Shown here: positions 7,964-42,611 of the stretch, one piece after another
Layout of the letters: every line of letters starts with the position of its first letter
Position numbering within the stretch: position 1 is the first letter of the stretch
Source: an uncultured Methanomicrobiales archaeon
GTDB taxonomy: Archaea > Halobacteriota > Methanomicrobia > Methanomicrobiales > Methanospirillaceae
Direction of reading: 5' to 3'
Assembly: GCA_963758915.1 (NCBI GenBank)
Contig: CAVWXH010000009.1
Coordinates: 192,001-256,000, forward strand
Length of the DNA stretch: 64,000 bases
The notes under the pieces: generated by a model
The model's database searches: none
What the model was told of the DNA's origin: nothing
The model's input: only the letters and a program-made list of their open reading frames with translations
Made by a program: the position numbers and the translations under genes

Positions 7964-8842
7964 TCAAAGCGAAGGGAATACCCGGATGATATCAGACTGA
8001 GTGAGAATACCGATTGGCACGTCCCCTTCAACGACAACCAGGCGGCCAATTTTACGTTCCTTGAACCTTCCAATAACCTCAAAGAGCTGGACATCAGCTG
8101 ACGCTTTCACCACATCAGTTGTCATTACCACATTGACCTTTGTAGTCAGGGGCATCTCATCATCAATTGCTTTTATAACATCCGACAGAGTTATGATCCC
8201 TTCAAGACCCCCGTTTCCAATCACCGGGGCACCATGGATATGGCGGGTATTGAAGAGATGAAGTGCATCACGCAGCGTGGAGTCCGGTGGAAGTGAGAGG
8301 ATCGGTGCACTCATATAATGCCGGATCGATTGTTTCGGGAGTGATATCATCTCCTGGGTGGTAATCAGCAGGGATTGTTCCACCTCGTCTTTCCCATACA
8401 CCTCACCACGGATCAGGAGCTTGTTAACCGGGGTCGGGCCGATCGTAATCTGGTCGCCTATCTCGAAAATTTTTGCACTCCCAATCAGTTTTATTAACGC
8501 ATGACAGATATCCGGGTGACACAGGGTAGTGAAATCAATCTCTGATACCTTTGCCCCCGTTACCGTCTCACCATTCCGGGAGATGCGGACATCATAGTCC
8601 TCATCCGAAATGTCAAGGTCAAGTTCCCGAAAGGCAAGAGCCGTCGGATTATACCCTCCCTTCGGACCGGGAACCCCGTCAACCAGGCCAATCGCTTTAA
8701 GGGATTGCATCTGGTTCCGTATAGTTCCAGGATTCCGTTTTATTATATCAGCGATTTCTTCACCCTTAATTGGATGAGAATGCTTTTGGTAGAGGGAAAT
8801 CAGTGTAATCAGGATGTCTTTCTGAATAAGGGAAAGATCCAT
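7964..8842 (-). CDS. HrcA-like wHTH + CBS-pair transcriptional regulator
   Basis: IKGEEIA..IKRNPGTIRNQMQSLKAIGLVDGVPGPKGGY; two C-terminal CBS domains. Confidence 0.85.
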   Translation of the reverse strand: MDLSLIQKDILITLISLYQKHSHPIKGEEIADIIKRNPGTIRNQMQSLKAIGLVDGVPGPKGGYNPTALAFRELDLDISDEDYDVRISRNGETVTGAKVSEIDFTTLCHPDICHALIKLIGSAKIFEIGDQITIGPTPVNKLLIRGEVYGKDEVEQSLLITTQEMISLPKQSIRHYMSAPILSLPPDSTLRDALHLFNTRHIHGAPVIGNGGLEGIITLSDVIKAIDDEMPLTTKVNVVMTTDVVKASADVQLFEVIGRFKERKIGRLVVVEGDVPIGILTQSDIIRVFPSL

Positions 8843-8888
8843 AATGATTAATCATGGGAGTACCATAAATAGGTTAGGTTGAACTTCT

Positions 8889-9857
8889 GTGGAATTTGAG
8901 AGAATCCCGACTGTACCGACCGCTGACGAAGTCCTTGACAGGTGTTTCCGGCGTGCTGCGGCTAAAATGAAATTAAAAGCGAATAAAGACCGCGCAAATC
9001 AGGATTTCGTACGGGCTGTCAGCCACTCCATTCACGACAGGCTGGTACACGTGATCCAGACATTCCCTGAATTCGAGACCCTCCCCCCGTTTTACCGGGA
9101 GACTGTAGATATCCTGTATGGAATTCCGAGGCTGAAAAAGGCCCTCGGGGCGATTGGCTGGGCCGCCAGGTGGTCCAGGCTTCACGGCCCTGACCTGATA
9201 CTCGAGACCCGGAGAGGAGGGGATCCGCTTGCCGCACGAAAAAAGGCGGTTGCACGGCTTGCGTCAGTAGTCCACCAGATAGATTCCGAACTGCGTTTCT
9301 TAAATGAAGTAAGAAATGTGGTCCGGAAGCTACCCCACGTGGAGGACATTTTTACGGTGGTTATCGCAGGGTACCCGAATGTCGGCAAATCATCATTTAT
9401 CCGGCTGGTTTCCACGGCAGACCCGGAAGTTGCTTCGTACCCGTTTACTACGAAAGGAGTCATCGTAGGACACCGGGTGGACGGGAGAAAACGGATGCAG
9501 TTTATCGATACTCCCGGCGTACTTGACCGGTTGCCTGAGGCGAGAAATCCCATCGAACGGCAGGCGATGGCTGCAATAACCAATATTGCCGATGTTATCC
9601 TGTTCATTCTTGACCCGAGCGAACACTGCGGGTTCCCGCTCGAGGACCAGATGAAACTGTATGAAGAAATTACCACCACCATCGATGTGCCGGTTGTTGC
9701 AGTCGCAAACAAATCTGATATAAAATGTCTGGATGGCTACCCCCTGATGTCAACAGGCCAGAACTCAGGAGTTGACGAGGTCCTTCTTATCCTTATGGAA
9801 TACTGGAGGGAACCAGGGGTGGTTGAAGAGCCAATCCCATACTCCGTCACATACTGA
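8889..9857 (+). CDS. NOG1-family GTP-binding protein
   Basis: GYPNVGKSS, ASYPFTT, DTPG, NKSD. Confidence 0.92.
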   Translation: MEFERIPTVPTADEVLDRCFRRAAAKMKLKANKDRANQDFVRAVSHSIHDRLVHVIQTFPEFETLPPFYRETVDILYGIPRLKKALGAIGWAARWSRLHGPDLILETRRGGDPLAARKKAVARLASVVHQIDSELRFLNEVRNVVRKLPHVEDIFTVVIAGYPNVGKSSFIRLVSTADPEVASYPFTTKGVIVGHRVDGRKRMQFIDTPGVLDRLPEARNPIERQAMAAITNIADVILFILDPSEHCGFPLEDQMKLYEEITTTIDVPVVAVANKSDIKCLDGYPLMSTGQNSGVDEVLLILMEYWREPGVVEEPIPYSVTY

Positions 9858-9894
9858 AACCGGTAAGAAATCAATAATTTCGGCTTTTATTAAA

Positions 9895-10359
9895 CCCTCT
9901 CAAATCTATCTTGCAGATTGGGAATTCACGCTGGTATGAAAAACTCCACGAACCACCTGAAAGACGACCTTTTTCATACTCATCTATGAGCCAACGGCTC
10001 ATAGCACGCTCTGTTGAAGAGCTATAATAGGCACCCAGAATCCTGATTATTCTGAAATTTATCTTCGCTCCAGGGGCTCATGGCCCGCCGCTTTGGCGAC
10101 CCCGGTTGGGATAGAGACTATTCCCAATACTCTGAATGTAATGAGCCTTCGCCGAAACCCTGCCCGAAGAATATCTGAATGGGGGTGAAGCAGGGAGGCG
10201 GTGAAACCCCCTCCTGTCTACATATTCTCCACTTCTTTTTTAAAATTCTCATAATTTCCCCTGTAAATGCCTGAACGGCCACCAATCTGAAGAAATTTTG
10301 AACGTGGTATTTTCAATCGTTCGGGTGTGAACTTCGCGTTCATCTGTGTTTCAACAAAG
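9895..10359 (+). repeat. Dispersed intergenic repeat / MITE-like element, copy 1 (A end + structured core 10066-10219 + B end)
   Basis: Starts CCCTCTCAAATCTATCTTGCAGATTGG; core CGCTCCAGGGGCTCATGGCCCGCCG...GGTGAAACCCCCTCCTGTCT; ends TTTCAACAAAG. Same architecture occurs inverted at 27038-27377. Confidence 0.75.
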
Positions 10360-10434: not shown

Positions 10435-11337
10435 TCAGATCATCATCCAGCCCCAGCTCCCGCTTATTGCACACCCAATCAAAAAACCGATAATTGCCCC
10501 ACCATTTAGTGGAGGGAGCCCGGCTTGGGGTTTTCCCTTATTTACAAACCAAAGGAGGACTATAAGGCCGGCGAGCGATCCAATAATTGCACCCAATGCC
10601 GGAATATTAATAAATGGCAAACCACCCGGTTTTAAGAACATATTGGCCGAAACAACGAGGATCGCAGGCATAATGAGGTCGCCCATCCCCATGACGAATG
10701 CCCCCCGCTCTCCCTCACTAATCTTGCCAATCCCATCCCTGATATATGAATAGCTGACTTTTTTCGGGATAACGAAGAGAATGGGCGTTTTCATCTCCAT
10801 TACTCCTTCTGCAAGGGTGATCATATGCCGGGTCTTGTAGACCGAGATGGCATCATAAATCGCGAGGAGGACAAGCAGGATTATTACCGGAATAATACCA
10901 AGCGAGATGCCAAAAATTGACGCCGCACCTGCGGCAATAAGTATTCCGAGTGTGTCAATGACATACCATTCCGGATACAGGTACAGGAGAGCAATCGCAA
11001 GCCCGGAAAGTATGAGGGGCATGACCACTGCGATGATCCCGTTACTGGTAAAGAGGGTTACAATGGAGCTGAAAATATAAACAAACGTAAAGAAAATCGA
11101 AACCGCAATAATTGCGACAATAAGTTGTTTATAGCGATATTTCAGCAGTACCAGGAGCACGGCGGTGAATGCAAGGAGTATCGCGATAAAGATCAGGGGA
11201 TTTAACATTGACGAAGGGTCTTCGAAAGCTGTGATTCCTGCCTCTTTCATCGGTAGCGAGAGAAAAATAGCGCCGATTTCCACGAGGACCATCATTACCA
11301 GCATCCCTGCCAGCGGGACCAGCTGTTTCAACTCCAT
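10435..11337 (-). CDS. Presenilin-family intramembrane aspartyl protease PSH
   Basis: YD (AIYDAISV), GxGD (MGMGDL) and PAL-like (QAGLPPL) motifs; many TM helices. Confidence 0.92.
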   Translation of the reverse strand: MELKQLVPLAGMLVMMVLVEIGAIFLSLPMKEAGITAFEDPSSMLNPLIFIAILLAFTAVLLVLLKYRYKQLIVAIIAVSIFFTFVYIFSSIVTLFTSNGIIAVVMPLILSGLAIALLYLYPEWYVIDTLGILIAAGAASIFGISLGIIPVIILLVLLAIYDAISVYKTRHMITLAEGVMEMKTPILFVIPKKVSYSYIRDGIGKISEGERGAFVMGMGDLIMPAILVVSANMFLKPGGLPFINIPALGAIIGSLAGLIVLLWFVNKGKPQAGLPPLNGGAIIGFLIGCAISGSWGWMMI

Positions 11338-11394
11338 ACCAGAACTCCATTCATCATAGGTAGTTTAATTAGTTGGCCTTCATTATCTAAAAGC

Positions 11395-11709
11395 ATGGAT
11401 ATTCGAGATTACGTGCGCGACATTATTCTGATTATTATCCTCGTAATCGCCACACTCGCACTCGTCACGCGCCTCTGGTATGATAGTACAATTGCCCTGG
11501 GCGCAATGCTGATGATGCTTTCCCTCGGGGGGCTTCTCCTGTCCCAGAGCATCAGGATCCGTTCACTGGAGCGTAGTATCCAGGTGCGTGACAAGGCAAT
11601 CAGGGCGAATCTTGAGGAAATTTCAGCGAAAATGATCCAGAAATACGATGCGAGTGCAGCCCATCTCGATGAGGTCGTCAACGAGTTTGGGAAACGTATC
11701 TACCGGTAG
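11395..11709 (+). CDS. Hypothetical membrane protein (2 TM + coiled coil)
   Basis: Two hydrophobic helices then a heptad-like tail; fills the gap ahead of fen. Confidence 0.7.
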   Translation: MDIRDYVRDIILIIILVIATLALVTRLWYDSTIALGAMLMMLSLGGLLLSQSIRIRSLERSIQVRDKAIRANLEEISAKMIQKYDASAAHLDEVVNEFGKRIYR

Positions 11710-31798: not shown

Positions 31799-32029
31799 TC
31801 ATTTCTTCATCGTTACAAGATAACTGTTATCAGCGGATTGTTCCCATGTCACATCATATCCCTGGCTGATAAATTGTGAACAGGTATTGTCGACCTGCTC
31901 CCGGGTGGCAAAAAATTTTAGTTCTCCTCCGTTTGCAAGTTTTTTCAACAGTATTTTGAGTTTAATCATCAGGTTTGTACAGGTAAGATCGGTAAAATCG
32001 CTGGGTTTTGTCGTATCCATCCTAATCAC
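31799..32029 (-). CDS. TusA/SirA (YedF/YeeD)-like sulfur-carrier protein
   Basis: ~75 aa, DFTDLTCTNL (Cys at the CPxP position), final gene of the YedE-DsrE cluster. Confidence 0.65.
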   Translation of the reverse strand: MIRMDTTKPSDFTDLTCTNLMIKLKILLKKLANGGELKFFATREQVDNTCSQFISQGYDVTWEQSADNSYLVTMKK

Positions 32030-32041
32030 ATCCTCCGGTTT

Positions 32042-33269
32042 TTAGAAAAATATCGTCCTCACAGGGCGGGAATTATTTGCATGACCCGTGACTCCGAGCA
32101 AGGCTCCAAGCCCGGTACTGTCAATCATTTCGATCGATGACAGGCACTCTGCCCTTTCCAGTCCCCGTTCCGCGAGGGAAGGGGAGTATACATAATAGTG
32201 CAGTCCGGTGATATCGGAGGTCGCTTCAACCATCTCCTGTACATTAAAAACCCGGTCATCCGGGGTTACTTCGTGATTCCCGCATAGCGAATAAACTCCC
32301 TGCTCGATGAATATTACCCTGGTCTCGATCCCACCCATCGCGGCTGCAACTGCCATGGAAAGTCCACCAAAAGTCCATTCAGATACATATGGGGTATTGG
32401 TGATCATGACGGTGAGGATTGGATTTGCCGTGTCCGTTCCGGGTTGTTCTTTTATCCGGGATACGGATGTGCCTCCGCAGGAATGCGCCAGTATCGGGTG
32501 ATGCCCGATGAACCGGTCGAGGATCTCTTTCAGGGGCCTTATAGTAATGGCATCGATGCAGGATACCGGCACACAACCTCCTGTTTCCGTGTTTTTAACA
32601 TAATACCCGCGGGCTGTTGCACAACGCGAACATGCACCAAACCATGGGTCTTCACCCGATCCACCCGCGACTGTTGAAAGGGCTGCTATACCCTCCCCGA
32701 TATTTTCAAATTCCGAGGGCCTCTGGTACATGTGGGCAGCATGTACACCATCCAGGTAACTATACAGCTCGGGGGTCAGGCCGGCCTCAACAGCACTTTT
32801 TAAAAACCTGAGCATATACACCGGAATGCGGCTCATGTAGGGAGAATAGCAGAGGAGAAATGCCACCTTGTCACTCCCCGTCCAGTTCTCCTGGATATGA
32901 TTCACCAGTGACTGCCAGAAGGTTATTTCGTCGGCGGATCTGCGATCACCAGTGACATTTACATCCGGATAACGGGTAACCACTTCATCGCGAATTCCAT
33001 GCAACCGTCAGCTCGTCCCCGTCGGCAATAACACTCACTGTGGAATCCGAAAAAAGGGAACCCCATTTTTTCTCAAGCCTGGCATCTACGAGGCTCATGA
33101 GTGCATCTCCAGTGAGATACAGGTTACAGCTATTATTTGTATCCGTTATCTTTGCAGGTCCACTACTCCCGGGACTCTCCTTTTCGGGAAAACATCCTTT
33201 GATCCATTGGAGCCGTTCGGGAGATACTTCCCCGCAGAACAGGAAGTAAGAGGTTATCATCGGCAACAA
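32042..33269 (-). CDS. DsrE/DsrF/DsrH (TusD/C/B)-like multidomain protein (frameshift near 33005)
   Basis: ORFs 32985-33269 and 32042-33004 join if one G is removed (DELT-LHGIRD). YLDGVH and GACSRCATARG (DsrE-like); TPYVSE...FIEQGVY...SLAERG (DsrF-like). Confidence 0.7.
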
Positions 33270-33305
33270 TCCTCGTCTTCTGGCAAAAAATTCAATATAT
33301 ACATC

Positions 33306-33833
33306 TCATACCCCGAACCCTATTAATTTCATGAGAACTACGACGGCTCCCGATACCCACGCGGCAAAAATAATTGAGCCAATACACATCCCGACGAAAA
33401 ACCAGGCCGCTTTGTAATTTCCTTCCGATGCCATTACGGTCTGCCTGATAGGGCAACCCCCAAGGTACACACAGATCAACCCGATGAAAAAACCCGGGAT
33501 TATTGCAAACAGGAAATATGCAGCGGGACTTAAGCCCCCCGGGGCACCGGGTATTGCTGTGAACAGGCCGTTTGTGTTCGCCCATAAAAATCCCTCCATG
33601 GCACTCGGGATGATGAACCAGAAGAGGAGGTACCCGGCAAACGATGCGAGAATCAGGGTTATATACCCTGACAGGAGTCGTGTGTGCCGGAAAAGGTAAT
33701 AGTCACGGAACCCGCCAATCGAACAATACCCGGACCTCTGGGCTAAATATCCAATGAGGAGCCCGAGCATGAGTGTTACTACGGGGACCGCATAGATGGC
33801 GATATCCCTGGGGAGAATTCCTATCGCTACCAT
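33306..33833 (-). CDS. YeeE/YedE family transporter, second half
   Basis: AQRSGYCSIGGFRD and LGGCPIRQ; ATG overlaps the upstream TAA (TAATG). Confidence 0.85.
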   Translation of the reverse strand: MVAIGILPRDIAIYAVPVVTLMLGLLIGYLAQRSGYCSIGGFRDYYLFRHTRLLSGYITLILASFAGYLLFWFIIPSAMEGFLWANTNGLFTAIPGAPGGLSPAAYFLFAIIPGFFIGLICVYLGGCPIRQTVMASEGNYKAAWFFVGMCIGSIIFAAWVSGAVVVLMKLIGFGV

Positions 33834-34378
33834 TATGCTTCCTCCCGTTCTGCCCATTTTAACATGATATATGCTCCTGCAATTACACCTGCGGCCATAG
33901 AAATAATGAAGACAAGAGCACTCAGGTCACCATACCCGGTCCGTAATGCAGCCCGGTACGGGCACCCGCCAAAGATCATGGCAAGTTGTAAGACAATTAC
34001 CCCGGCAAGAAAATAGATGGCATAATCCCAGGTTGTCCCTTTCCGGATTTTATGTTCCTTTGATTTTTTTGCTGCAACATAACCCCCGATAAGAACACCG
34101 ACAATACTCATCACTGGCAGGACCGCATTTGCGGAAATGGGGGCAAGGGCAAGGTGCGTACCTGCAACAATATTGGTAAGCCCGTTCACGAGGTCACGGG
34201 TATGACAGGCAACACAAAATCCATAGGCGACGGGTCCACCGGCGCTGATAAGGAGGGCCTGGGTAAAAGCAGCGAGAATACCGATAAGGGCACCAAGAAA
34301 CGCGGGGTGTCTCATCCAGTCCCGATGAGACTGCCCTGTATGCTCACTTCCAGATTGATCTGACATGTGAGTATACAT
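33833..34378 (-). CDS. YeeE/YedE family transporter, first half (selenium-associated YedE-like)
   Basis: GFCVACHTRD and FGGCPYRA motifs; hydrophobic. Confidence 0.85.
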   Translation of the reverse strand: MYTHMSDQSGSEHTGQSHRDWMRHPAFLGALIGILAAFTQALLISAGGPVAYGFCVACHTRDLVNGLTNIVAGTHLALAPISANAVLPVMSIVGVLIGGYVAAKKSKEHKIRKGTTWDYAIYFLAGVIVLQLAMIFGGCPYRAALRTGYGDLSALVFIISMAAGVIAGAYIMLKWAEREEA

Positions 34379-34694: not shown

Positions 34695-35063
34695 TCATTT
34701 GCGGACCGCCTTCCGGACTGCCGCAACCAGTATCTCGATCTCATCGAACCTCGGGTCCGCCATCCCGTTCTTTTCAATCCCTTCTTCGGTCGCGATTATA
34801 TGGATATGAGGGGTTATGCACAGGCTTTTCAGTTTCTTCGCTGCACAATGGTCCTTACAGCCGTCAAGGACCAGCACCTTCCCACCGTTGATAACGTTCT
34901 CCATGTCATGCGTGGACTGTTTTGCATTCAGGTGCCCTTCGAACAAATCCGGTTCCCGCTGCACAAGAACTGCTGCTACCTGAGCAGTAAGTTTTCCGGT
35001 ATTGGAGATCCCCGAACAGGTAACGAGGACCAATGAATCGTTGTCATCAGGAATTAGTCTCAC
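34695..35063 (-). CDS. DGC-domain putative zinc-binding protein
   Basis: TCSGISNTGKL...VLDGCKDHCAAKKL...EEGIEK. Confidence 0.8.
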   Translation of the reverse strand: MRLIPDDNDSLVLVTCSGISNTGKLTAQVAAVLVQREPDLFEGHLNAKQSTHDMENVINGGKVLVLDGCKDHCAAKKLKSLCITPHIHIIATEEGIEKNGMADPRFDEIEILVAAVRKAVRK

Positions 35064-35112
35064 CCTGTGTCATGGTGTTACCCTGGTCAACATTTACATT
35101 CCAACTCGGATT

Positions 35113-35910
35113 TCAAGTGGATGACCGTTTTACGGCCCTTACTTTCACGCTTCGTATTGATCCCTCAATCTTCGGGAACAGCGGATCGGTAGCGGAAAGG
35201 TCGAATGGGACTCGTACCTCCTCAAGTACTGCCACATCGGTTAAATTAGCTTTTCTTATCAGGTCAAGATACGCATCCTTCATTATCGCACCCGCGACAC
35301 AGCTCGTATAGGCTTCAACCGAAGTTCGTACTGACTCAGGGAGTGGTTGGTCGAGGACAATATCGGAGACCATGAGCAGTCCTCCTGGCTTTAGTACGCG
35401 GTATGCCTCCCGGAAGACTCTCGCCTTATCAGGAGAGAGATTGATAACGCAATTCGAGATTATGAGATCGACGGAGTTATCAGCAACCGGAAGTGCTTCA
35501 ATCTCTCCGAGCCGGAACTCGACATTGGTTACCCCGGCTTTCTTTGCATTTTCCCGTGCCTTTGCGAGCATCCCGGGGGTCATATCGACCCCGATAACCA
35601 ATCCGGTCTTTCCGACCTTGCGGGCCGCAAGGAAACAATCAAACCCGGCACCGGACCCCAGGTCAAGTACGGTGTCCCCTTCGTGAATCGCAGCATGGGC
35701 AAGCGGGTTCCCACAACCAAGTCCGAGATTTGCGCCAGCCGGGACCGCATTCATTTCTTCTGCCGAATACCCTGCTTTCCCGCTCATCTCTTCTGCGGTT
35801 GTTGTGCTGCCGCAGCAGGAGGATGATGGGCCACAGCAACCGCAGCCCTGCTCCGCCACCTTTGCGTAGCCCTTTCGTACATTTTTCCGTATTTCATGTT
35901 CGTCAGTCAT
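35113..35910 (-). CDS. arsM: Arsenite S-adenosylmethionine methyltransferase
   Basis: Cys-rich N-terminus, LGLGCGNP, DLGSGAGFD, ISNCVINL, CVAGA. Confidence 0.93.
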   Translation of the reverse strand: MTDEHEIRKNVRKGYAKVAEQGCGCCGPSSSCCGSTTTAEEMSGKAGYSAEEMNAVPAGANLGLGCGNPLAHAAIHEGDTVLDLGSGAGFDCFLAARKVGKTGLVIGVDMTPGMLAKARENAKKAGVTNVEFRLGEIEALPVADNSVDLIISNCVINLSPDKARVFREAYRVLKPGGLLMVSDIVLDQPLPESVRTSVEAYTSCVAGAIMKDAYLDLIRKANLTDVAVLEEVRVPFDLSATDPLFPKIEGSIRSVKVRAVKRSST

Positions 35911-35962
35911 GATTTCACCTGGTATGTACTCGTTATTATTTCGTCAGTTATTGTCATATTGT

Positions 35963-36673
35963 TCAATCCATCCTCGTTTTCTTCTCTTCCGCTGCCTTTG
36001 CGGCACTTCGTGCCTTCAGCTTCTCGATCATGTCGAGTGCTCGTTGTTTCGCGGCCCGTTCCTTGTCATCCTGTGGTTCAGACCACGGCTGTACGACCTT
36101 CCAGGTAATCTTCCCGCTCAACGGCGGTTCCGGCCATGCCCCGGGATCGCAGAGAACCTGGCCTTTGAAATCAACCGGTTTCTCCTGGTAACAGGACCAC
36201 ACGGCCTTCCTAATTACTTCTTCTGTCTGGAACTGGCAGTCAACAAGTGTCAGCTGGTCACGGAACCTCTGGATGAATTCCATCGGGACATTATACAGGA
36301 CTGCGGTAAGTCCTGTAGTCCCGATAATACGTTTCTTTTCATCGACCCCGTTCCGGAACAATGCCTTGATTGCATCTCCTGTCTTGTGTCCTTCGGATTC
36401 GGGGCCTCCAAGGATGAGGAATCTGATGTTCGGGTTCGCAACGATATTGCAGATAACCTTCTCGATGCCGATATTTGCCGTCTGCAACGTCCCTGATAGT
36501 GCAGCCCCGCTCTCCACGCCTGTCCGTACAAGGCGTTCAATCTCGGGTGGGATCTCTTCGGCATCGGTAGTCAGGATGATAATTACTGCGACAGGGGAGT
36601 AGTCGTTGCCTCTCAGGTAACGCCCCTCTTCGGGCGGATAGGCCTCATGAGGGGCCACTTTAAGCATGACCAT
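35963..36673 (-). CDS. Soluble MtrA-like corrinoid-binding protein
   Basis: YPPEEGRY..GN..SPVAV, TANIGIEKVICNIVANPNIRFLILGGPESEGHKTG, RIIG, RFRDQ; no C-terminal TM helix. Confidence 0.85.
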   Translation of the reverse strand: MVMLKVAPHEAYPPEEGRYLRGNDYSPVAVIIILTTDAEEIPPEIERLVRTGVESGAALSGTLQTANIGIEKVICNIVANPNIRFLILGGPESEGHKTGDAIKALFRNGVDEKKRIIGTTGLTAVLYNVPMEFIQRFRDQLTLVDCQFQTEEVIRKAVWSCYQEKPVDFKGQVLCDPGAWPEPPLSGKITWKVVQPWSEPQDDKERAAKQRALDMIEKLKARSAAKAAEEKKTRMD

Positions 36674-37370
36674 TCACACCGTTCCTGCCTGTTTTTTCCG
36701 GAACTCTTTTCAGTATCTGGTCCATCTCATCACTGAATTTTTCAAGTCCCGCAGCAGCCAGCGCTTCTTTTGGAATACTATGGAGCAGCTGCCGGACATG
36801 CAGGGCCCCGGATACTTCTTTGTCACAGGTCTTCCCAAACCGGGGTGCAACACAGTGGTGGCAGATCCGGAGACCGAAATGCCTGAGCGTTTCGGTGTTG
36901 AGTTGCATATTAACGCATTCAGCAGCAGCTCCCCGTGTCGAACCGCATGGGGCTTCCCTTACAATTTCAATCCCGGTGATCGTTCCGTTTTCCACGGTGG
37001 TCACAAAACCGGGAAGTCCGAACTTCTCCGCGTATAAGTCGATCTCTTTGCACCCGGTCGTTGGTTCAAGGGAGCACATGGTCGGGGCCGAGGCAACATG
37101 GGGGTTGATCTCTATCGCCTGGCGGACGAGACCGGGACCGGGGGTGATACCGAGCACTACCGGTATTCCCTGTTCGACAATGGCAAGGATAACATCCGGG
37201 TGCCGGGCATAGGAGATACAGAGGTCACATGGTGGCAGGTCTATCTCGACATCCTCCATGATCGGGGATCCTGAGTATGGAACCGTGACCCACCGGCAGG
37301 TGAACTGCCGGCAGATATTCTCAAATGCCCGCTTCCCGAATAACCCGTCGCTGATGATGTTTATCTGCAT
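36660..37370 (-). CDS. DUF166-family protein
   Basis: GLFGKRAFENI, HPD, PTMCSL, FGLP, REAPCGST; start re-assigned to ATG 37370. Confidence 0.7.
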   Translation of the reverse strand: MQINIISDGLFGKRAFENICRQFTCRWVTVPYSGSPIMEDVEIDLPPCDLCISYARHPDVILAIVEQGIPVVLGITPGPGLVRQAIEINPHVASAPTMCSLEPTTGCKEIDLYAEKFGLPGFVTTVENGTITGIEIVREAPCGSTRGAAAECVNMQLNTETLRHFGLRICHHCVAPRFGKTCDKEVSGALHVRQLLHSIPKEALAAAGLEKFSDEMDQILKRVPEKTGRNGVNGHA

Positions 37371-37389
37371 AGGCTCTCCTTTACCACCT

Positions 37390-38439
37390 TCATACCGGAG
37401 ACCCCGCCGTTTTTTCAAACTCTTTAATCCGGCGTCTCCTTCTCAATGACAACCATACAATTCCCAGCATGACGGGTATTTCAATCAATGGACCGACAAC
37501 CGTGGAGACCGCGACCATCGGCATCGCTGCAAATGCTGTCAGTGCGATGGCAATCGCCAGCTCGAAGTTCCTGCCGGTACAGTGGAAACCCATCGTTGCC
37601 GAATCTTCGTAATTGTACCCCATACGCCTCGTCGTATAGTAGACAATATGGAACAGCAGGAAGAAGAACAGGACAATGGGGACCGCCATCTGCCAGATTA
37701 AGCTCGGGTTATCGATTATCACCTCGCCTTTCAGGGCGAACATGACAACCATGGTGAACAGTAATGCGAGCAGCTGGAGGACATTGAAGCGTGGTATGAG
37801 TTTGGTGTTCAGCCATTCCACGCCTTTCCGTTTGATTACCTCCCTGCGTGTAATAACCCCTAAAAGCAAGGGCAGACCGAGATAGAGAAGGACACTCTGG
37901 GCAATAAGGACGAAATCTATGGCAATGTACGTGCCTACCAGGAGAGCGATGAAGAAAGGTGTTGTAAAAATCTGGATAATGGAATTCCATGCCATGAGTA
38001 CGATCCCGAGGGGGCCGTTACCTTTGGCAAGGTCCGTCCACACCAGCACCATCGCAATGCACGGTGCGACACCGAGCAGGATAAGGCCGGTCCACAGGGA
38101 ACTGGCGGTTTCAGCCGTGATCCAACCCATGCCCAGCAGTATCTGCTCAAAGAATACCCATCCGATGAAATAGAGCAGGAAGGGATTGACAACGTAATTG
38201 AAAAAAACAATGATGGCGACCTGTTTCTTACTCTTGAAGGCATCTTTAAGTTCTCCCAGTTCGATCTTCGTCATCGCCGGGTAGATCATCAAAAATAATC
38301 CAATCGGGATACCAATTGCGAGATGCTGGCTGAATTCAGGGAAGTATTTCCCGATTGCTAACCCGGTTACAATACAGAGAAATATCCAGAGGGCCAGGAG
38401 TTTTTCAACCCAGCCCAGTCCTCCTGTACTTTCTGTCAT
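37390..38439 (-). CDS. acr3: Acr3-family arsenite efflux transporter
   Basis: MIYPAM, APCIAMVLVW, RNFELAIA, VGPLIEIPV. Confidence 0.92.
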   Translation of the reverse strand: MTESTGGLGWVEKLLALWIFLCIVTGLAIGKYFPEFSQHLAIGIPIGLFLMIYPAMTKIELGELKDAFKSKKQVAIIVFFNYVVNPFLLYFIGWVFFEQILLGMGWITAETASSLWTGLILLGVAPCIAMVLVWTDLAKGNGPLGIVLMAWNSIIQIFTTPFFIALLVGTYIAIDFVLIAQSVLLYLGLPLLLGVITRREVIKRKGVEWLNTKLIPRFNVLQLLALLFTMVVMFALKGEVIIDNPSLIWQMAVPIVLFFFLLFHIVYYTTRRMGYNYEDSATMGFHCTGRNFELAIAIALTAFAAMPMVAVSTVVGPLIEIPVMLGIVWLSLRRRRRIKEFEKTAGSPV

Positions 38440-38530
38440 TGCGATGCGCTTTCCCTGCAAAATGGCCTGTGACCCTCAGGAAATGAGGGTTTTCTGACCT
38501 GGTCCATCGTGTCCATCAAAATTCACACCA

Positions 38531-38965
38531 TCAGAGGATTTTTTCAAGAATTGCTACGGCACCGGCAACCAGTTCAGGGCATTTCGTGACGAAGAGTCTG
38601 CTTTCACGTGCCCGTTCATATTCATCCGGGTTGCTGAGGTTATACCCGAGCAGTTCCGTGCAGTTGACCGAACCATACCGGGCGGTAAATTCCTGCATGA
38701 ATTCCCTGACCAAAGCCCGCAACTTTTCGGTTGCCGCATTATCCCCCTGTATTGTCTTCCCGTATTTCAGGCCAATCACCATAATCGCCCCTGATACGGC
38801 ACCGCAGATGTTCCCTGTTTTCGAGATACCTGCACCAAAACCGCAGCCTATTTTCTTTGCCATATCCGGGTCCAGTCCGAGCTCCCCGGCAAATGTGGAG
38901 AACACTACTGACGAGCAGGTAAACCCGCTCTGGAAACTCGCAAGTGCATCATCGGATTTTGTCAT
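38531..38965 (-). CDS. C_GCAxxG_C_C family putative redox protein
   Basis: GFTCS, GFGAG, ICGAVSG, NCTELLG, KCPELV. Confidence 0.88.
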   Translation of the reverse strand: MTKSDDALASFQSGFTCSSVVFSTFAGELGLDPDMAKKIGCGFGAGISKTGNICGAVSGAIMVIGLKYGKTIQGDNAATEKLRALVREFMQEFTARYGSVNCTELLGYNLSNPDEYERARESRLFVTKCPELVAGAVAILEKIL

Positions 38966-38974
38966 TGCCCACCT

Positions 38975-39442
38975 TCAGCAGCTTCCTCCGCAACGGTCCC
39001 CGCAGCCGCAGCCTCCTGGTCCCGGTTTCTTATCGTTTTGTTCCGGGACTTCTGTTCTTCCGGCTCCTTCCCAGGCTGCTGATACGACTGTTTCAATATC
39101 GGCATCTGTGTAGTCCCTTGACCCGGACTTCACAATACCCAGTTCAGTTACGATGATATGCTGTCCGGGGATGATTCCCTGCTCTGCTGCTATCTTTTTC
39201 GCACACAGCATCGGGCAGCCATCAAGGATGACCACTTCGTCAGCCTTCTTTGCATTGGCGACAAGCCCTTCGGCACCGATTGCAAGCAGAGCTACACAGG
39301 CGATATTCCCGTATCCTTCCTCGGTTAACTGGATTGCTGCTAGGTTGGTGAGCTGCCCGGTGTTTGCCTGCCCGGCACAGGGAAAGATGATCCGTTTAGG
39401 TTCGTCCTGTCCGCATGAACAGGTAGGTGTTTCTGCCATCAC
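38975..39442 (-). CDS. DGC-domain putative zinc-binding protein
   Basis: FPCAGQANTGQL...ACVA...LDGCPMLCAKKI; Cys-rich tail. Confidence 0.85.
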   Translation of the reverse strand: MMAETPTCSCGQDEPKRIIFPCAGQANTGQLTNLAAIQLTEEGYGNIACVALLAIGAEGLVANAKKADEVVILDGCPMLCAKKIAAEQGIIPGQHIIVTELGIVKSGSRDYTDADIETVVSAAWEGAGRTEVPEQNDKKPGPGGCGCGDRCGGSC

Positions 39443-39681
39443 GCACCTCCACCCAGGAACTTTTTGATTTCCGGGACATCGGCGACCCTGCCTGAGATTT
39501 TCAGGTCTCCGTCCACAATAACCGCCGGCAGCATCATCACGCCCCGTTCCATGATCTGGGCGATATCATCCACTTTTACGATCTCTGCGGTGATACCAAG
39601 TTGTTTGACCGCTGCTTCGACATTGCTCATCTGCCGCTTGCAGTTTGCGCAACCGGTCCCGAGTACTTCAATGGTTACCAT
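39439..39681 (-). CDS. Small thioredoxin-like redox-active disulfide protein (MTH895/ArsE-like)
   Basis: IEVLGTGCANC...GVMMLPAVIVDG. Confidence 0.9.
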   Translation of the reverse strand: MVTIEVLGTGCANCKRQMSNVEAAVKQLGITAEIVKVDDIAQIMERGVMMLPAVIVDGDLKISGRVADVPEIKKFLGGGA

Positions 39682-39805: not shown

Positions 39806-40768
39806 CTACCCTAGTATCACGTTAAAGAGCAGCCCGGTAATGGTTATCGCTGCAAACATAATTCCTGCAAAGACCGCGATGAGTTTTATTTTTATTACTT
39901 TCCGGAGGATAATCATCTCCGGGAGTGATAACCCGATCACCGACATCATAAACGCGAGGGCAGTCCCGAAAGCCATACCCTTTGAGGTCAGGACATCCAA
40001 AATCGGGATCATCCCGGCTGCATTAGAATACAGGGGTATACCAATGAGCACTGCGATTGGGACTGCAAGAGGGTTATCAGGGCCTGCAATATTCACGAGG
40101 AAATCAGCCGGTGCATACCCATGAATTATCGCCCCGATTGCGATACCTATGAGGATGTATGGCAGGACCTTCAGGGTGATGCTCTTTGATTCACCTATTG
40201 CAAAGTCGGTCCGGTCCCGCCAGGTCATGACCTTGTCCGGCTGGTCATGTAACTTGCATTTATAGACGAACTCTTCGACCTGGTTTTCGAGGTGGAGCCT
40301 CCCGATAATAATTCCTGCAACGATGGCGATGATCAGGCCTGATACGATGTAGAGTGCTGCAATCTGCCACCCGAATAATGCAAAAAGCATCGCGATGGCA
40401 ACTTCATTGATCAACGGCGAAGCGATGAGGAAAGAGAACGTGATCCCCAGTGGCACACCCGACTCGACAAACCCTATAAAGAGCGGGACTGCCGAACACG
40501 AGCAGAACGGAGTAGGAATACCAAGAAGGGCCGCAAATACATTCCCCACTCCTTCGGTCCTCCCGCCTACCCATTTCTTCACTTTCTGCGGGGTAACGAA
40601 AGTCCGTATTATACCGACAAAGAATACGATGACCGCGAGAAGAGCGGTCACCTTGATCGAATCGTAGATAAAGAAATTGACCGAGGAGGCAAGCGGGGTC
40701 CCTGCTACTAATCCTAAAACCGTATACGTGACCCAGTCCGCAAACATCTGTAAATAGTCAGGAATCAT
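39806..40768 (-). CDS. ArsP/DUF318 permease (organoarsenical efflux family)
   Basis: TPFCSCSAVPLF, SPLINE, GIPLYSNAAG, LSLPE. Confidence 0.88.
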   Translation of the reverse strand: MIPDYLQMFADWVTYTVLGLVAGTPLASSVNFFIYDSIKVTALLAVIVFFVGIIRTFVTPQKVKKWVGGRTEGVGNVFAALLGIPTPFCSCSAVPLFIGFVESGVPLGITFSFLIASPLINEVAIAMLFALFGWQIAALYIVSGLIIAIVAGIIIGRLHLENQVEEFVYKCKLHDQPDKVMTWRDRTDFAIGESKSITLKVLPYILIGIAIGAIIHGYAPADFLVNIAGPDNPLAVPIAVLIGIPLYSNAAGMIPILDVLTSKGMAFGTALAFMMSVIGLSLPEMIILRKVIKIKLIAVFAGIMFAAITITGLLFNVILG

Positions 40769-40972
40769 CACGTGCTCCCCCCTCACATTCATAAATGTTC
40801 CATTCAGTCATCGGCGGTCCCTCGTGTGCCATCGTCGGTATTCAGAATTATATCAATAACCATTCTACCAGAATTCCCATGAACCAGCAGTTAGAGATTC
40901 AAATTATCTTGAAATTATATTGTCAGTGGAAGACATATATACCTTACCATTTCATATTAATTTGAATCTTTT

Positions 40973-41371
40973 ATGCCACAGACAAAAACACGTTCACGCC
41001 CGGCCAAATGCTGCGATGTTACAAGGGATATCCCGGATCCAGTCCGGGACGAACTTAATAAAAGAGGCGGAATGGACGGACTACTTGCCCGGATCCCGGA
41101 CCCGGCTTCACGGTATACGAGCAGCCGTCTTGCCCAGGCACTGGCCGATCCGATCCGCCTTACTGTCATGTACGCGCTTCATTCCCAGCCGCTCTGCGTC
41201 TGCGTGATCAAGGCAGTCGTCCAGATTGCAGACTCAAAGCTCTCCTACCATCTCACGATCCTAAAAGAACAGGAATTTATTGTCGGTGAACAGCAGGGCA
41301 ACTGGATTATCTACTCAATTACAGACCGTGGCCGGCAGGCACTGAAGTGTATTGAAAAAATGGGAGTCTGA
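40973..41371 (+). CDS. arsR: ArsR/SmtB family regulator
   Basis: ALADPIRL, LCVCVI, SKLSYHL..LK, GNWIIYS; divergent from the arsP operon. Confidence 0.88.
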   Translation: MPQTKTRSRPAKCCDVTRDIPDPVRDELNKRGGMDGLLARIPDPASRYTSSRLAQALADPIRLTVMYALHSQPLCVCVIKAVVQIADSKLSYHLTILKEQEFIVGEQQGNWIIYSITDRGRQALKCIEKMGV

Positions 41372-41375
41372 ACAG

Positions 41376-41867
41376 ATGGACCCCTGGAAACCAAAATTAA
41401 TAATTCCCCTGGTCCTTGCCTGCATGATGATATCCCTGCTTTTTGTTGCAGGATGCTCATCTCTCACGGCAAATGAGGGTAAAGGTGCGATTTCTCCATC
41501 GACCGCGAACATTACCCGAAGTACTGTCGAACGTGTAGAGGTAATGCATTTCCACCCGGCCCAGCAATGTTATTCCTGCAGGACGCTTGGGGAATATGCA
41601 AATGAGACACTGAACATCTTCTTTGCTCCTGAACTCGAATCCGGAAAACTGGTATACCAGGAAGTGAATATCAACCTCCCGGAGAACGCCGATCTCGTGA
41701 AGAAATACGAGGTGACCGGGTCATCGCTGTGGATCGGTGTGTATGACACGAACGGGTTCCACAAGGAACAGAATGTCAACGTGTGGTATAAAATCAATAA
41801 TAAAGCAGAATTTGCGCAGTATCTCCAGCCGATAATCAGGGACAGGCTTAATGGAGTCATTACCTGA
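41376..41867 (+). CDS. ArsF-like secreted thioredoxin-fold protein
   Basis: Signal with AGC; VEVMHFHPAQQCYSC...FAPELESGKL...NADLVKKY. Confidence 0.7.
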   Translation: MDPWKPKLIIPLVLACMMISLLFVAGCSSLTANEGKGAISPSTANITRSTVERVEVMHFHPAQQCYSCRTLGEYANETLNIFFAPELESGKLVYQEVNINLPENADLVKKYEVTGSSLWIGVYDTNGFHKEQNVNVWYKINNKAEFAQYLQPIIRDRLNGVIT

Positions 41868-42611
41868 TGGATTTTATGCAGGTAATGGAGACGATGGGTA
41901 CCAGCGGTATCCCGGTCGTCGCCGCTTTTTTTATCGGTCTTATGACCGCCTTCAGTCCTTGTACGCTCGCGACCAACATCACCGCGATTGCGTTTATATC
42001 CAAAAAAATTGACAACAATCGTCACACGCTCCTGGCCGGTTGTGTCTATACGCTCGGAAGGGTGGTCGCGTATGTCGCCGTGGCATCAGTCATTGTTTTC
42101 TTCGGGATGAACATCCAGTTTATTGCCCTGGGACTACAGCATTACGGTGAACTTCTGCTCGGGCCGTTCCTTATTGCGTGTGGGATTTACCTCCTCGATA
42201 TCATCCCTTTCAGCAGTCTGCCAGGATCATGCAGGATCGCAACCTTTTCTTCAGGGGTTACTGCAAGCCTCGCAGAGAGAGGTTATCTCGGCGCATTCCT
42301 GCTCGGTGTTATCTTTGCCATGAGTTTCTGCCCGTTCAGTGTCGTCCTCTTCTTTGCCATGCTGATCCCGCTCGCTCTTGGGTGCGGGCGACCCGGTACT
42401 CATTCCTGCGGTGTTCGCCATCGCAACCGGTTTACCAGTAATTGTGATCTCGTACTTCCTCGTGACGGGTGTAGGGAAGTGCAGTGGAATTGTTAAGAAA
42501 GTGGGGGAGATCGGGCCCTGGATCCAGAGAGCGGTCGCAGCGGTGTTTATCGTGGTCGGGTTGTACTATATTGCAATTATCCCCGGAATTGCAGGTAGTA
42601 TCTCTTTTTAG
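41867..42611 (+). CDS. ArsG/CcdA-like membrane protein (frameshift near 42380)
   Basis: GLMTAFSPCTLATNITA, YTLGR, SFCPFS; C-terminus continues in ORF 42378-42611 (FAIATGLPV) after one extra G. Confidence 0.75.

Follow-up and report, generated by a model that had tools for sequence, protein, structure and literature searches.

The closest described relatives of the protein treated here are MtrA and its cytoplasmic homologues (PDB 5LAA, 5L8X, 8Q3V and 9QTQ; PMC4915002), with which it shares the Pfam family, the fold, the His-on cobalt ligand and the contacts to the cobalamin tail. It is a soluble, MtrA-like putative cobamide-binding protein encoded in an arsenic (ars) operon, where its gene overlaps that of a DUF166 protein. 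The operon lies in a 64,000-nucleotide (nt) stretch of DNA from an uncultured Methanomicrobiales archaeon (GenBank assembly GCA_963758915.1, contig CAVWXH010000009.1), which was analysed over its full length and is hereafter called the window. Like the cytoplasmic homologues, the protein has no membrane helix; it differs from MtrA in sequence (~35% identity), in an Ala at the position of Glu54, in an extra helix at residues 43–54, in the lack of an adjacent mtr gene and in its context, which is arsenic instead of methanogenesis. An ars operon fitted with an MtrA-like cobamide accessory and a DUF166 accessory is the best explanation overall, to which we assign a probability of about one half.

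ArsM is the known route to methylarsenicals; ArsM/AS3MT enzymes use S-adenosylmethionine (SAM) directly and need no cobamide, and a canonical ArsM is encoded in the window operon itself. To our knowledge, only two enzymes are known for arsenic methylation and demethylation: ArsM, which depends on SAM, and ArsI, which depends on oxygen. Methylcobalamin-dependent methylation of arsenic was reportedly observed in methanogen extracts by McBride and Wolfe in 1971. The ArsP and ArsEFG systems that Chen et al. are said to have described in 2015 and 2019 came from aerobic or facultative bacteria and included no corrinoid protein. Homologues of these organoarsenical genes, assigned here by NCBIfam models only, are the most constant neighbours of the MtrA-like gene. 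As two reports put it, the amount of toxic dimethylarsenic (DMAs) that reaches rice depends on how arsenic is methylated and demethylated in anoxic soils and sediments (PMC6776024, PMC10579292), and the mechanism of anaerobic demethylation, in the wording of one of them, "remains unclear" (PMC10579292).

Three further systems offer partial likenesses. The hgcAB genes are described as being controlled by an arsenic-responsive ArsR-like regulator, as shown experimentally (bioRxiv 10.1101/2022.10.17.512643). Similar to the window operon, they pair a corrinoid protein with a redox partner, beside ArsR or under its control and co-located with ars genes; however, HgcA belongs to the corrinoid iron-sulfur protein (CFeSP) type, is membrane-anchored and has a fold unrelated to that of MtrA, and in both systems arsenic as a substrate is a proposal. 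The three-component MtaABC-type systems with RACo or RamA combine a small corrinoid methyl carrier with a reductive re-activator, which is the principle proposed here, whereas the window operon and its surroundings contain no MT1/MT2 enzyme or ATP-dependent activase (URO-D-type MT2 genes were not searched). Lastly, the Methanococcus maripaludis DUF166 protein MMP_RS05055, of the same Pfam family as the window protein, is tied genetically to carbon monoxide dehydrogenase/acetyl-CoA synthase (CODH/ACS): its deletion is reported to abolish CODH/ACS-dependent autotrophy, which was complemented in trans (bioRxiv 10.1101/2024.03.05.583561). A second DUF166 of the host genome shares this CODH/ACS context, whereas the window DUF166 adjoins acr3 and not cdh genes.

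The MtrA-like gene as a member of ars islands

Gene calls from the open reading frame (ORF) listing of the window, combined with Pfam and NCBIfam profile matches against curated cut-offs, revealed a minus-strand operon in the order arsP-arsE-DGC-CGCAxxG-acr3-DUF166-mtrA-like-arsM-DGC, opposite to the divergent plus-strand genes arsR-arsF-arsG (Table 1). From arsP to the second DGC gene, the spacing ranges from a 14-nt overlap to a 124-nt gap, and the stop codon of DUF166 lies within the first codons of the MtrA-like gene, giving an overlap of 14 nt, or of 8 nt if the latter starts at Met3. By layout, with a shared strand, tight spacing with known ars genes and arsR alongside, the genes belong to the ars operon. 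The genes from acr3 to the second DGC gene are the distal half of an arsenic-detoxification operon, which has an export and SAM-methylation core plus two separate accessory families, and the operon is probably under ArsR control. An earlier note, made from the sequence alone, had described the co-directional run of acr3, DUF166, mtrA-like, arsM and DGC with overlapping DUF166 and mtrA-like genes, the retention of the ExxGH region in a protein free of a membrane anchor, and the absence of other mtr genes nearby. All of this stands: the five genes matched curated models on the minus strand, the site and the C-terminus are as detailed below, and the only mtrH of the genome and both canonical mtrA genes lie outside the window, on contig C3.

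The MtrA-like protein matched the cobalamin-bound cytoplasmic MtrA homologue (PDB 5LAA) at an E-value of 6e-33, and by both profile and fold it belongs to the MtrA family (PF04208). Its AlphaFold model has a predicted local distance difference test score (pLDDT) of 91.5. Structural similarity search using Foldseek revealed that this model resembles 5L8X_A (E 6e-18), with a target-normalised TM-score of 0.93 and an RMSD (root-mean-square deviation) of 1.8 Å; against 5L8X and 5LAA together, the values are 0.92–0.93 and 1.8–2.5 Å, respectively. The score against the mtrA equivalog TIGR01111 is 121 bits, below the cut-off of 249, and the protein is not assigned as a subunit of the MtrA-H complex. 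In place of a membrane anchor, the C-terminus of the model forms a long charged helix (residues 203–235).

Conservation was assessed in 43- and 53-row alignments of relatives, with the 5LAA numbering taken from a printed alignment in which His35 and His84 agree with the paper. The ExxGH stretch reads E92-S-E-G-H96, of which H96 is aligned to the cobalt ligand His84 of 5LAA and kept in 52/52 aligned relatives. In solved MtrA, as described in PMC4915002, the side chains of Tyr18, Thr53, Asn55 and Asn64 hold the nucleotide tail of cobalamin and a propionamide. Their counterparts in the MtrA-like protein are Y19, T65, N67 and N76, of which T65 and N67 never vary and the other two are conserved to at least 90%. 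Because the sequence matches 5LAA, the folds superimpose and both H96 and the nucleotide-tail contacts are conserved, the protein probably binds a cobamide. It also has features absent from canonical MtrA, namely the helix insertion at residues 43–54, C75, the motif WSC161YQE and the charged C-terminal helix. C161 of this motif is present in 53/53 rows and C75 in 47/52 relatives; the two are candidate arsenic-holding residues.

A scan of species-representative genomes yielded 69 loci with MtrA-like relatives (36–98% identity), comprising 23 Methanomicrobiales loci, 7 loci of other archaea and 39 bacterial loci. The bacterial hosts span more than 10 phyla, including Planctomycetota, Omnitrophota, Acidobacteriota, Actinomycetota, Chloroflexota, Spirochaetota, Armatimonadota and Bacillota, and the nearest public relatives of the window locus itself are metagenome-assembled genomes (MAGs) of Methanoregulaceae/Methanomicrobiales. 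Neighbours were labelled by tblastn with 14 window proteins, united with clusters of 912 crude ORFs (23 cluster representatives were compared with Pfam). The counts refer to the stored flanks, and the ORF caller was crude (the longest ORF wins), with an antisense ORF masking a thioredoxin or DUF166 gene in some loci.

At least one of Acr3, ArsP, ArsE/F/G, ArsC and ArsM was found at 49/69 loci, namely 22/23 of those in Methanomicrobiales, 27/39 in bacteria and 0/7 in other archaea; the recurrent association with ars genes, on which the earlier note had let its proposal depend, is thus observed. Acr3 is near the MtrA-like gene at 37 of the 69 loci, ArsP at 36, ArsE at 35, ArsR at 32, a DGC protein at 26, ArsG at 18, DUF166 at 14, LMWP-type ArsC at 13, ArsF at 10, ArsM at 9 and HgcA at 5. 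In several bacterial phyla, Planctomycetota and Omnitrophota among them, the common order is ArsR-ArsP-MtrA-like-ArsE-(DGC)-ArsF-ArsG-Acr3. The position is kept as well: several bacterial phyla have the MtrA-like gene flanked by arsP and arsE, and in Methanoregula it lies between acr3/arsC and the end of the operon. ArsP is the commonest gene directly upstream, at 11/66 loci with a called MtrA-like ORF. ArsM directly adjoins the MtrA-like gene in three unrelated lineages: in the window with L006 and L050, in Acidobacteriota (L033) and in Planctomycetota (L034 and L035). In addition, a true HgcC-HgcA-HgcB set (HgcA 433 bits, cut-off 275) follows the MtrA-like gene in 5/23 Methanomicrobiales loci; the window contains no hgcA, and the candidate of this genome is on contig C3.

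Dozens of unrelated genomes show these same neighbours, which places the ars linkage of both the MtrA-like and the DUF166 genes beyond chance. The association of the MtrA-like gene with ars genes is non-random, and it is very probable that both genes are real members of ars islands. The usual seat of the MtrA-like family is the organoarsenical part of these islands (arsP, arsE, arsF and arsG). Judged from sequence and model, it is a distinct family of soluble, putatively His-on cobamide-binding proteins, patchily distributed over Archaea and Bacteria and an ars-island accessory in anaerobes that are mostly bacteria.

Among 151 Methanomicrobiales genomes (hereafter the order sample), 13, counting the host genome, carry the MtrA-like gene at E <= 1e-40, and it is therefore an accessory gene. 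A quick tree, with support from the approximate likelihood ratio test SH-aLRT and a midpoint root, from which we claim no donor or direction of transfer, separates the 53 MtrA-like relatives from the genome's own MtrA by a long, fully supported branch. The Methanomicrobiales clade is nested within a 25-row clade that also holds bacterial sequences. The possibility that the MtrA-like gene arose by recent duplication of the canonical mtrA in this genome was rejected, given this long branch and the bacterial nearest relatives.

Among the relatives with no ars neighbours, those of L054, L056, L058, L059, L060 and L074 come from Dehalococcoidia/Chloroflexota and Methanobacteriota MAGs. This set includes fused forms of ~460–507 amino acids and several tandem MtrA-like fragments of ~117 amino acids.

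The DUF166 protein and its corrinoid company

The DUF166 protein is Cys-rich, as had been noted before, with the motifs MCSL, APCGST and CHHC; C115, C158, C186, C189 and C198 (numbered from the listed start) are invariant or at least 90% conserved across 66 sequences. Its homologues have ~231 amino acids, and the true start is therefore probably the ATG at 37370. Against the DfsP equivalog NF041372, named DUF166 family (seleno)protein, it scores 56.4 bits (cut-off 200) and is not assigned to it. The model (pLDDT 89.5) consists of an N-terminal Rossmann-like domain and a Cys-rich C-terminal domain. Structural similarity search of the PDB using Foldseek gave no match at E <= 0.001, and a wide VIA-align search gave only generic Rossmann/CheY-like matches to residues 14–132, the best with a Z-score of 8.3 (3eq2_A) and the next rows at 7.3–8.2. 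These matches include the cobalamin domain of MetH, which scores no better than response regulators. The Cys-rich C-terminal half had no fold match in the whole-model searches and was not run alone. A sequence search of the PDB found nothing below E 0.9, and a search of the ESM Atlas with PF02593 left out found no usable match. When the MtrA-like protein (alignment A2) was co-folded with DUF166 (alignment A1), the score was 0.00 against a mark of 0.32; the run had no controls and bears neither way on binding.

From a scan with the 66-sequence alignment, 80 DUF166 loci were retained and the 79 new ones analysed; because some places also belong to the MtrA-like set, neither census is independent of the other. 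Of these loci, 60/79 contained at least one of Acr3, ArsP, ArsM and ArsC. The individual counts are Acr3 44, ArsR 36, ArsP 27, DGC 26, HgcA-like 21, LMWP-type ArsC 14, MtrA-like 14 and ArsM 8. In the order sample, this ars subfamily occurs in 8/151 genomes (E <= 1e-35). The subfamily is an archaeal ars-island gene in its own right, with a conserved centre of four to five Cys residues.

Other DUF166 proteins keep company with corrinoid proteins. The second DUF166 of the host genome (G000) shares 28% identity over 154 residues with the window DUF166, and four conserved Cys residues align. It lies in a CODH/ACS locus (L075, contig C15, 1502–11563), where cdhA-B-C-D-E is followed by a classical B12-binding protein (8757–9422). 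There this 319-residue DUF166 paralogue (9392–10351) overlaps the B12-binding gene, to which it is translationally coupled, and faces a RACo-type activase on the minus strand (10661–11563). Moreover, 13 Asgard-type loci show the arrangement ArsR | DUF166-Acr3-fusion-HgcB-like ferredoxin, in which the fusion is a protein of ~550 amino acids joining a CpaM-like SAM methyltransferase to an HgcA-like corrinoid domain; both halves score under their equivalog cut-offs. These loci are L112, L123, L126, L128, L130, L133, L136, L141, L143, L147, L149, L152 and L154, and the operons often continue with two small genes of no assigned family. Such a methyltransferase-HgcA fusion within an ars operon seems worth its own study.

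Since DUF166 paralogues accompany CODH/ACS and HgcA-like fusions, a corrinoid-service role for DUF166 is favoured. As a rival reading, DUF166 may be a metal-cluster or thiol-redox helper rather than a corrinoid helper, which would suit the existence of selenoprotein forms, as indicated by the name of NF041372 and reported in PMC9312934. In the ars operons of the Asgard-type loci, DUF166 and a SAM methyltransferase again stand with a corrinoid protein, here one that is not homologous to MtrA, and this recurrence of the trio is the best single reason to think that its members act together.

A possible cobamide-dependent step in arsenic handling and its alternatives

We propose that the MtrA-like protein would carry the cobamide in the His-on state and cycle between Co(I) and CH3-Co(III), passing the methyl group to thiol-bound trivalent arsenic, As(III), or taking it from a methylarsenical, with the arsenic held on the candidate residues, the invariant Cys161 together with Cys75. 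The product would exit via ArsP or Acr3. DUF166, where present, would service the corrinoid, either by electron transfer for the reactivation of Co(II) to Co(I) or by handling the cofactor, and ArsM may act in parallel or as a SAM-side methyl donor. A cobamide-dependent step in arsenic handling is plausible from the conserved site and its setting, as is the functional reading of the ars association in general. That its chemistry is methyl transfer to or from arsenic is a tentative proposal, with odds somewhat short of even; its direction and any link to the one-carbon (C1) pool are likewise hypothetical, and sequence does not distinguish methylation from demethylation.

A bolder form of this proposal, which we regard as rather doubtful, makes the MtrA-like family the corrinoid core of a so far undescribed anaerobic system for arsenic methyl transfer, with arsenic on Cys161/Cys75 and DUF166 as its archaeal reductive servicing protein. 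In one variant, As(III) would be methylated without direct SAM chemistry, and the resulting methylarsenite, MAs(III), would be handed straight to the adjacent ArsP, much as MtrA passes its methyl group to a membrane subunit. In the other, the protein would strip methylarsenicals of their methyl groups under conditions in which ArsI, an oxygen-dependent lyase, fails.

Several observations weigh against the proposed step or parts of it. Glu54, which according to PMC4915002 hydrogen-bonds the cobalt ligand His84 in solved MtrA, is replaced by Ala66 in the window protein, and of the 52 relatives, 29 have E, 19 have A and 4 have P at this position. As many as 20/69 MtrA-like loci have no ars-type neighbour, including all 7 from archaea outside Methanomicrobiales, although some of them are short contigs. 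No MtrH, RACo-type activase or CdhD-type gene was found in the window, which therefore shows no corrinoid methyltransferase system by this test (URO-D-type MT2 genes were not searched), and across the 69 MtrA-like loci, bacterial ones included, no MT1/MT2-type methyltransferase or activase partner is recurrent. All 14 of the MtrA-like loci with DUF166 are from Methanomicrobiales, against 0/39 bacterial loci, and the two genes occur together in only three order-sample genomes (G000, G139 and G147), overlapping in the first and lying 2.0–2.5 kb apart on the same contig in the other two. ArsM exceeds its curated cut-off in 35/151 order-sample genomes but is lacking by that measure in 8/13 of those with the MtrA-like gene, seven of which are at least 96% complete; the remaining five are G000, G067, G083, G093 and G145. 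Furthermore, PMC10579292 and PMC6776024 assign DMAs demethylation to methylotrophic and not hydrogenotrophic methanogens, which disfavours methane-linked demethylation in this host.

The earlier note had proposed a cobamide-dependent arm of arsenic methylation or demethylation that could link methylarsenicals to the C1 pool. What survives is the cobamide arm itself, through the ars linkage and the conserved cobalamin-binding residues. DUF166 and ArsM as general partners of the MtrA-like gene do not survive: DUF166 as a specific partner by general rule was rejected on the 14/69 loci and on the three shared genomes among 13 MtrA-like-positive and 8 DUF166-positive ones, and ArsM, which is found in the flanks of 9/69 loci and over its cut-off in 5/13 MtrA-like-positive genomes, is not obligate for the MtrA-like gene. 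The link to the methanogen C1 pool also falls away, with the partner genes named above missing from the window; a methanogen-specific C1 link is disfavoured because the family is mostly bacterial.

Of the alternatives, the one that survives best, though unlikely, replaces methyl transfer by redox chemistry. The MtrA-like cobamide would be a low-potential Co(I)/Co(II) reductant working with ArsE, ArsF, ArsG and, in archaea, DUF166, and organoarsenicals (nitro groups, pentavalent methyl or aromatic forms) would be reduced to forms exported by ArsP, ArsG or Acr3. The most constant neighbours in bacteria are indeed ArsP, ArsE, ArsF and ArsG and not ArsM (ArsE at 18, ArsG at 15 and ArsM at 6 of the 39 bacterial loci). 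In NCBIfam, ArsF is called a "nitrophenyl compound nitroreductase subunit" and ArsG an efflux permease for aminoaromatic arsenicals. Neighbours such as ArsE, ArsF and ArsG, named for the reduction and efflux of nitro-aromatic arsenicals, would suit redox as well as methyl chemistry, which counts as a further point against our proposal. The methyltransferase partner is not conserved at the MtrA-like loci, and the selenoprotein forms of DUF166 (NF041372; PMC9312934) are typical of redox proteins. Methyl transfer is nevertheless what all characterised members of the MtrA fold carry out, as far as PMC4915002 describes them as methyl carriers; moreover, the adjacency of ArsM arose in three lineages, and the Asgard-type DUF166-Acr3 operons hold a SAM methyltransferase fused to a corrinoid domain.

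The conservation of Cys161 and Cys75, family-specific and absent from canonical MtrA, suggests a reactive site rather than passive storage. This tells against a second alternative, quite unlikely in our view, in which arsenic is not a substrate and the MtrA-like protein sequesters or spares the cobamide under arsenic stress, preventing the adventitious methylation of As(III) by methylcobamide to the more toxic MAs(III) or re-supplying damaged corrinoid enzymes. Such protection would suit a small stand-alone cofactor-binding domain that has no catalytic partner nearby, is found only in anaerobes dependent on corrinoid enzymes, and co-occurs with ArsP, whose family is stated to include a methylarsenite exporter (via PMC9144182).

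The same two residues could instead mark an arsenite chaperone or sensor, which would bind As(III) on its conserved Cys and deliver it to ArsP or Acr3, the cobamide site being vestigial. The delivery of arsenite to ArsA by ArsD offers an analogy, and the conservation of C161 and C75 and the position directly downstream of a permease gene in the 11/66 loci given above would fit. We consider this very unlikely: the MtrA-like protein has only two conserved Cys, and a vestigial site leaves unexplained the conservation of the cobalt-ligand His and the cobalamin-tail contacts across domains. That the genes merely hitch-hike with a mobile ars island and act in some other corrinoid process, with no arsenic function, is highly improbable in spite of the loci without ars neighbours and of the deep quick-tree branches formed by non-ars archaeal and Chloroflexota sequences, given the conserved operon position and a linkage far above the ~1% that we estimate for one or two ars loci per 2–5 Mb genome falling in a 14-kb window.

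If the bolder form of the proposal is true, it would give a gene to the methylcobalamin-dependent methylation said to have been described in 1971 and to anaerobic demethylation. The MtrA-like and DUF166 proteins are concrete, clonable candidates for this missing anaerobic arsenic chemistry. The finding also connects the bacterial "MtrA homologues" left without a role in 2016, the need for DUF166 in CODH/ACS and the unexplained arsenic link of hgcAB. Public annotation names the family (NF002126) "tetrahydromethanopterin S-methyltransferase subunit A", which is misleading in bacteria because they have no such pathway. As far as we can tell, three points are new: a DUF166 subfamily has an ars linkage of its own; DUF166, a corrinoid protein and a SAM methyltransferase recur together as a trio; and the MtrA-like gene need not be accompanied by either ArsM or DUF166. 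A literature search, judged from its listings, found no paper describing an MtrA-type protein in ars operons, and a search for DUF166 by name found no arsenic paper by title.

Operon details and neighbouring genes

Coordinates and profile scores are collected in Table 1. Position 38439 is the first ATG of acr3 and lies inside the listed ORF. The ArsF-family protein had no match in a Pfam scan. The ArsG-family gene is split over the ORFs 41867–42496 and 42378–42611 in different frames, which is a frameshift or an assembly error. The ArsM translation shows the Cys-bearing motifs GLGCGNP, ISNCVINL and YTSCVAGA.

Table 1. Genes and other features of the ars region in window coordinates, with profile scores in bits.
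Feature	Position	Strand	Evidence
ArsG-family/DsbD_2 membrane protein, two frames	41867..42611	+	DsbD_2 51.7; NF040495 183 (cut-off 200)
ArsF-family protein, signal-anchor-like N-terminus and CxxC motif	41352..41867	+	NF040494 102.5 (cut-off 60)
ArsR/SmtB-family repressor, divergent from the long ars operon	40973..41371	+	HTH_5 40.7; NF033788 70.9 (cut-off 55)
Inverted repeat in the arsR/arsP intergenic region, inferred candidate operator	40895..40969		two 21-nt arms, 86% complementary, 33 nt between
ArsP_1-family permease, TPFCSCS motif, operon gene 1	39806..40792	-	PF03773 254.4
ArsE/MTH895-family thioredoxin-like protein (CxxC)	39439..39681	-	Thioredoxin_3 86.5; TIGR00412 99.4 (cut-off 62)
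DGC-domain protein 1	38975..39442	-	PF08859 114
C_GCAxxG_C_C putative redox protein	38531..38965	-	PF09719 111.5; TIGR01909 93.9
Acr3 arsenite efflux permease	37390..38460	-	SBF 144.5; TIGR00832 277.3 (just under cut-off 282.8)
DUF166 protein, ars-island subfamily	36660..37418	-	PF02593 99.9 (cut-off 24.4)
Soluble MtrA-like putative cobamide-binding protein	35963..36673	-	PF04208 128 (cut-off 25); NF002126 193 (cut-off 161)
ArsM, canonical SAM-dependent arsenite methyltransferase	35113..35910	-	NF008823 352.6 (cut-off 263)
DGC-domain protein 2, last operon gene	34695..35063	-	PF08859 75.8

RNA evidence came from four runs as contigs only, in scattered low-depth pieces that give no transcript start, strand or level and whose uncovered stretches carry no meaning. 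With 0 mismatches, contig X18 covers 36518–36668, which lies in the 5' part of the MtrA-like gene, and X17 spans the arsM/DGC junction (34921–35203) with 4 mismatches; such contigs do not show transcription and are a weak hint of expression.

The host genome (2.38 Mb in 18 contigs, 94% complete) is that of a methanogen, with two tandem canonical mtrA genes and mtrH on contig C3 and with CODH/ACS genes. The two canonical mtrA genes (L001/L002, C3:209303–210749) encode an identical soluble domain of ~170 residues and different C-terminal anchors.

A gap of 316 nt separates the second DGC gene from the next cluster on the minus strand (31799–34378), directly downstream of the operon. It encodes a YedE/YeeE-like transporter, then a DsrE/TusC-like protein of 320 amino acids and then a TusA-like protein, and looks like a sulfur- or selenium-handling module. 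The transporter consists of two half-size genes (33833–34378 and 33306–33857), each matching one half of TIGR04112. The module also adjoins the operon in L006, L017 and L050. DGC-domain proteins (PF08859) are a further recurrent ars-island family, with 26 loci in each of the two censuses, and in Methanoregula loci a DGC gene usually stands directly before DUF166.

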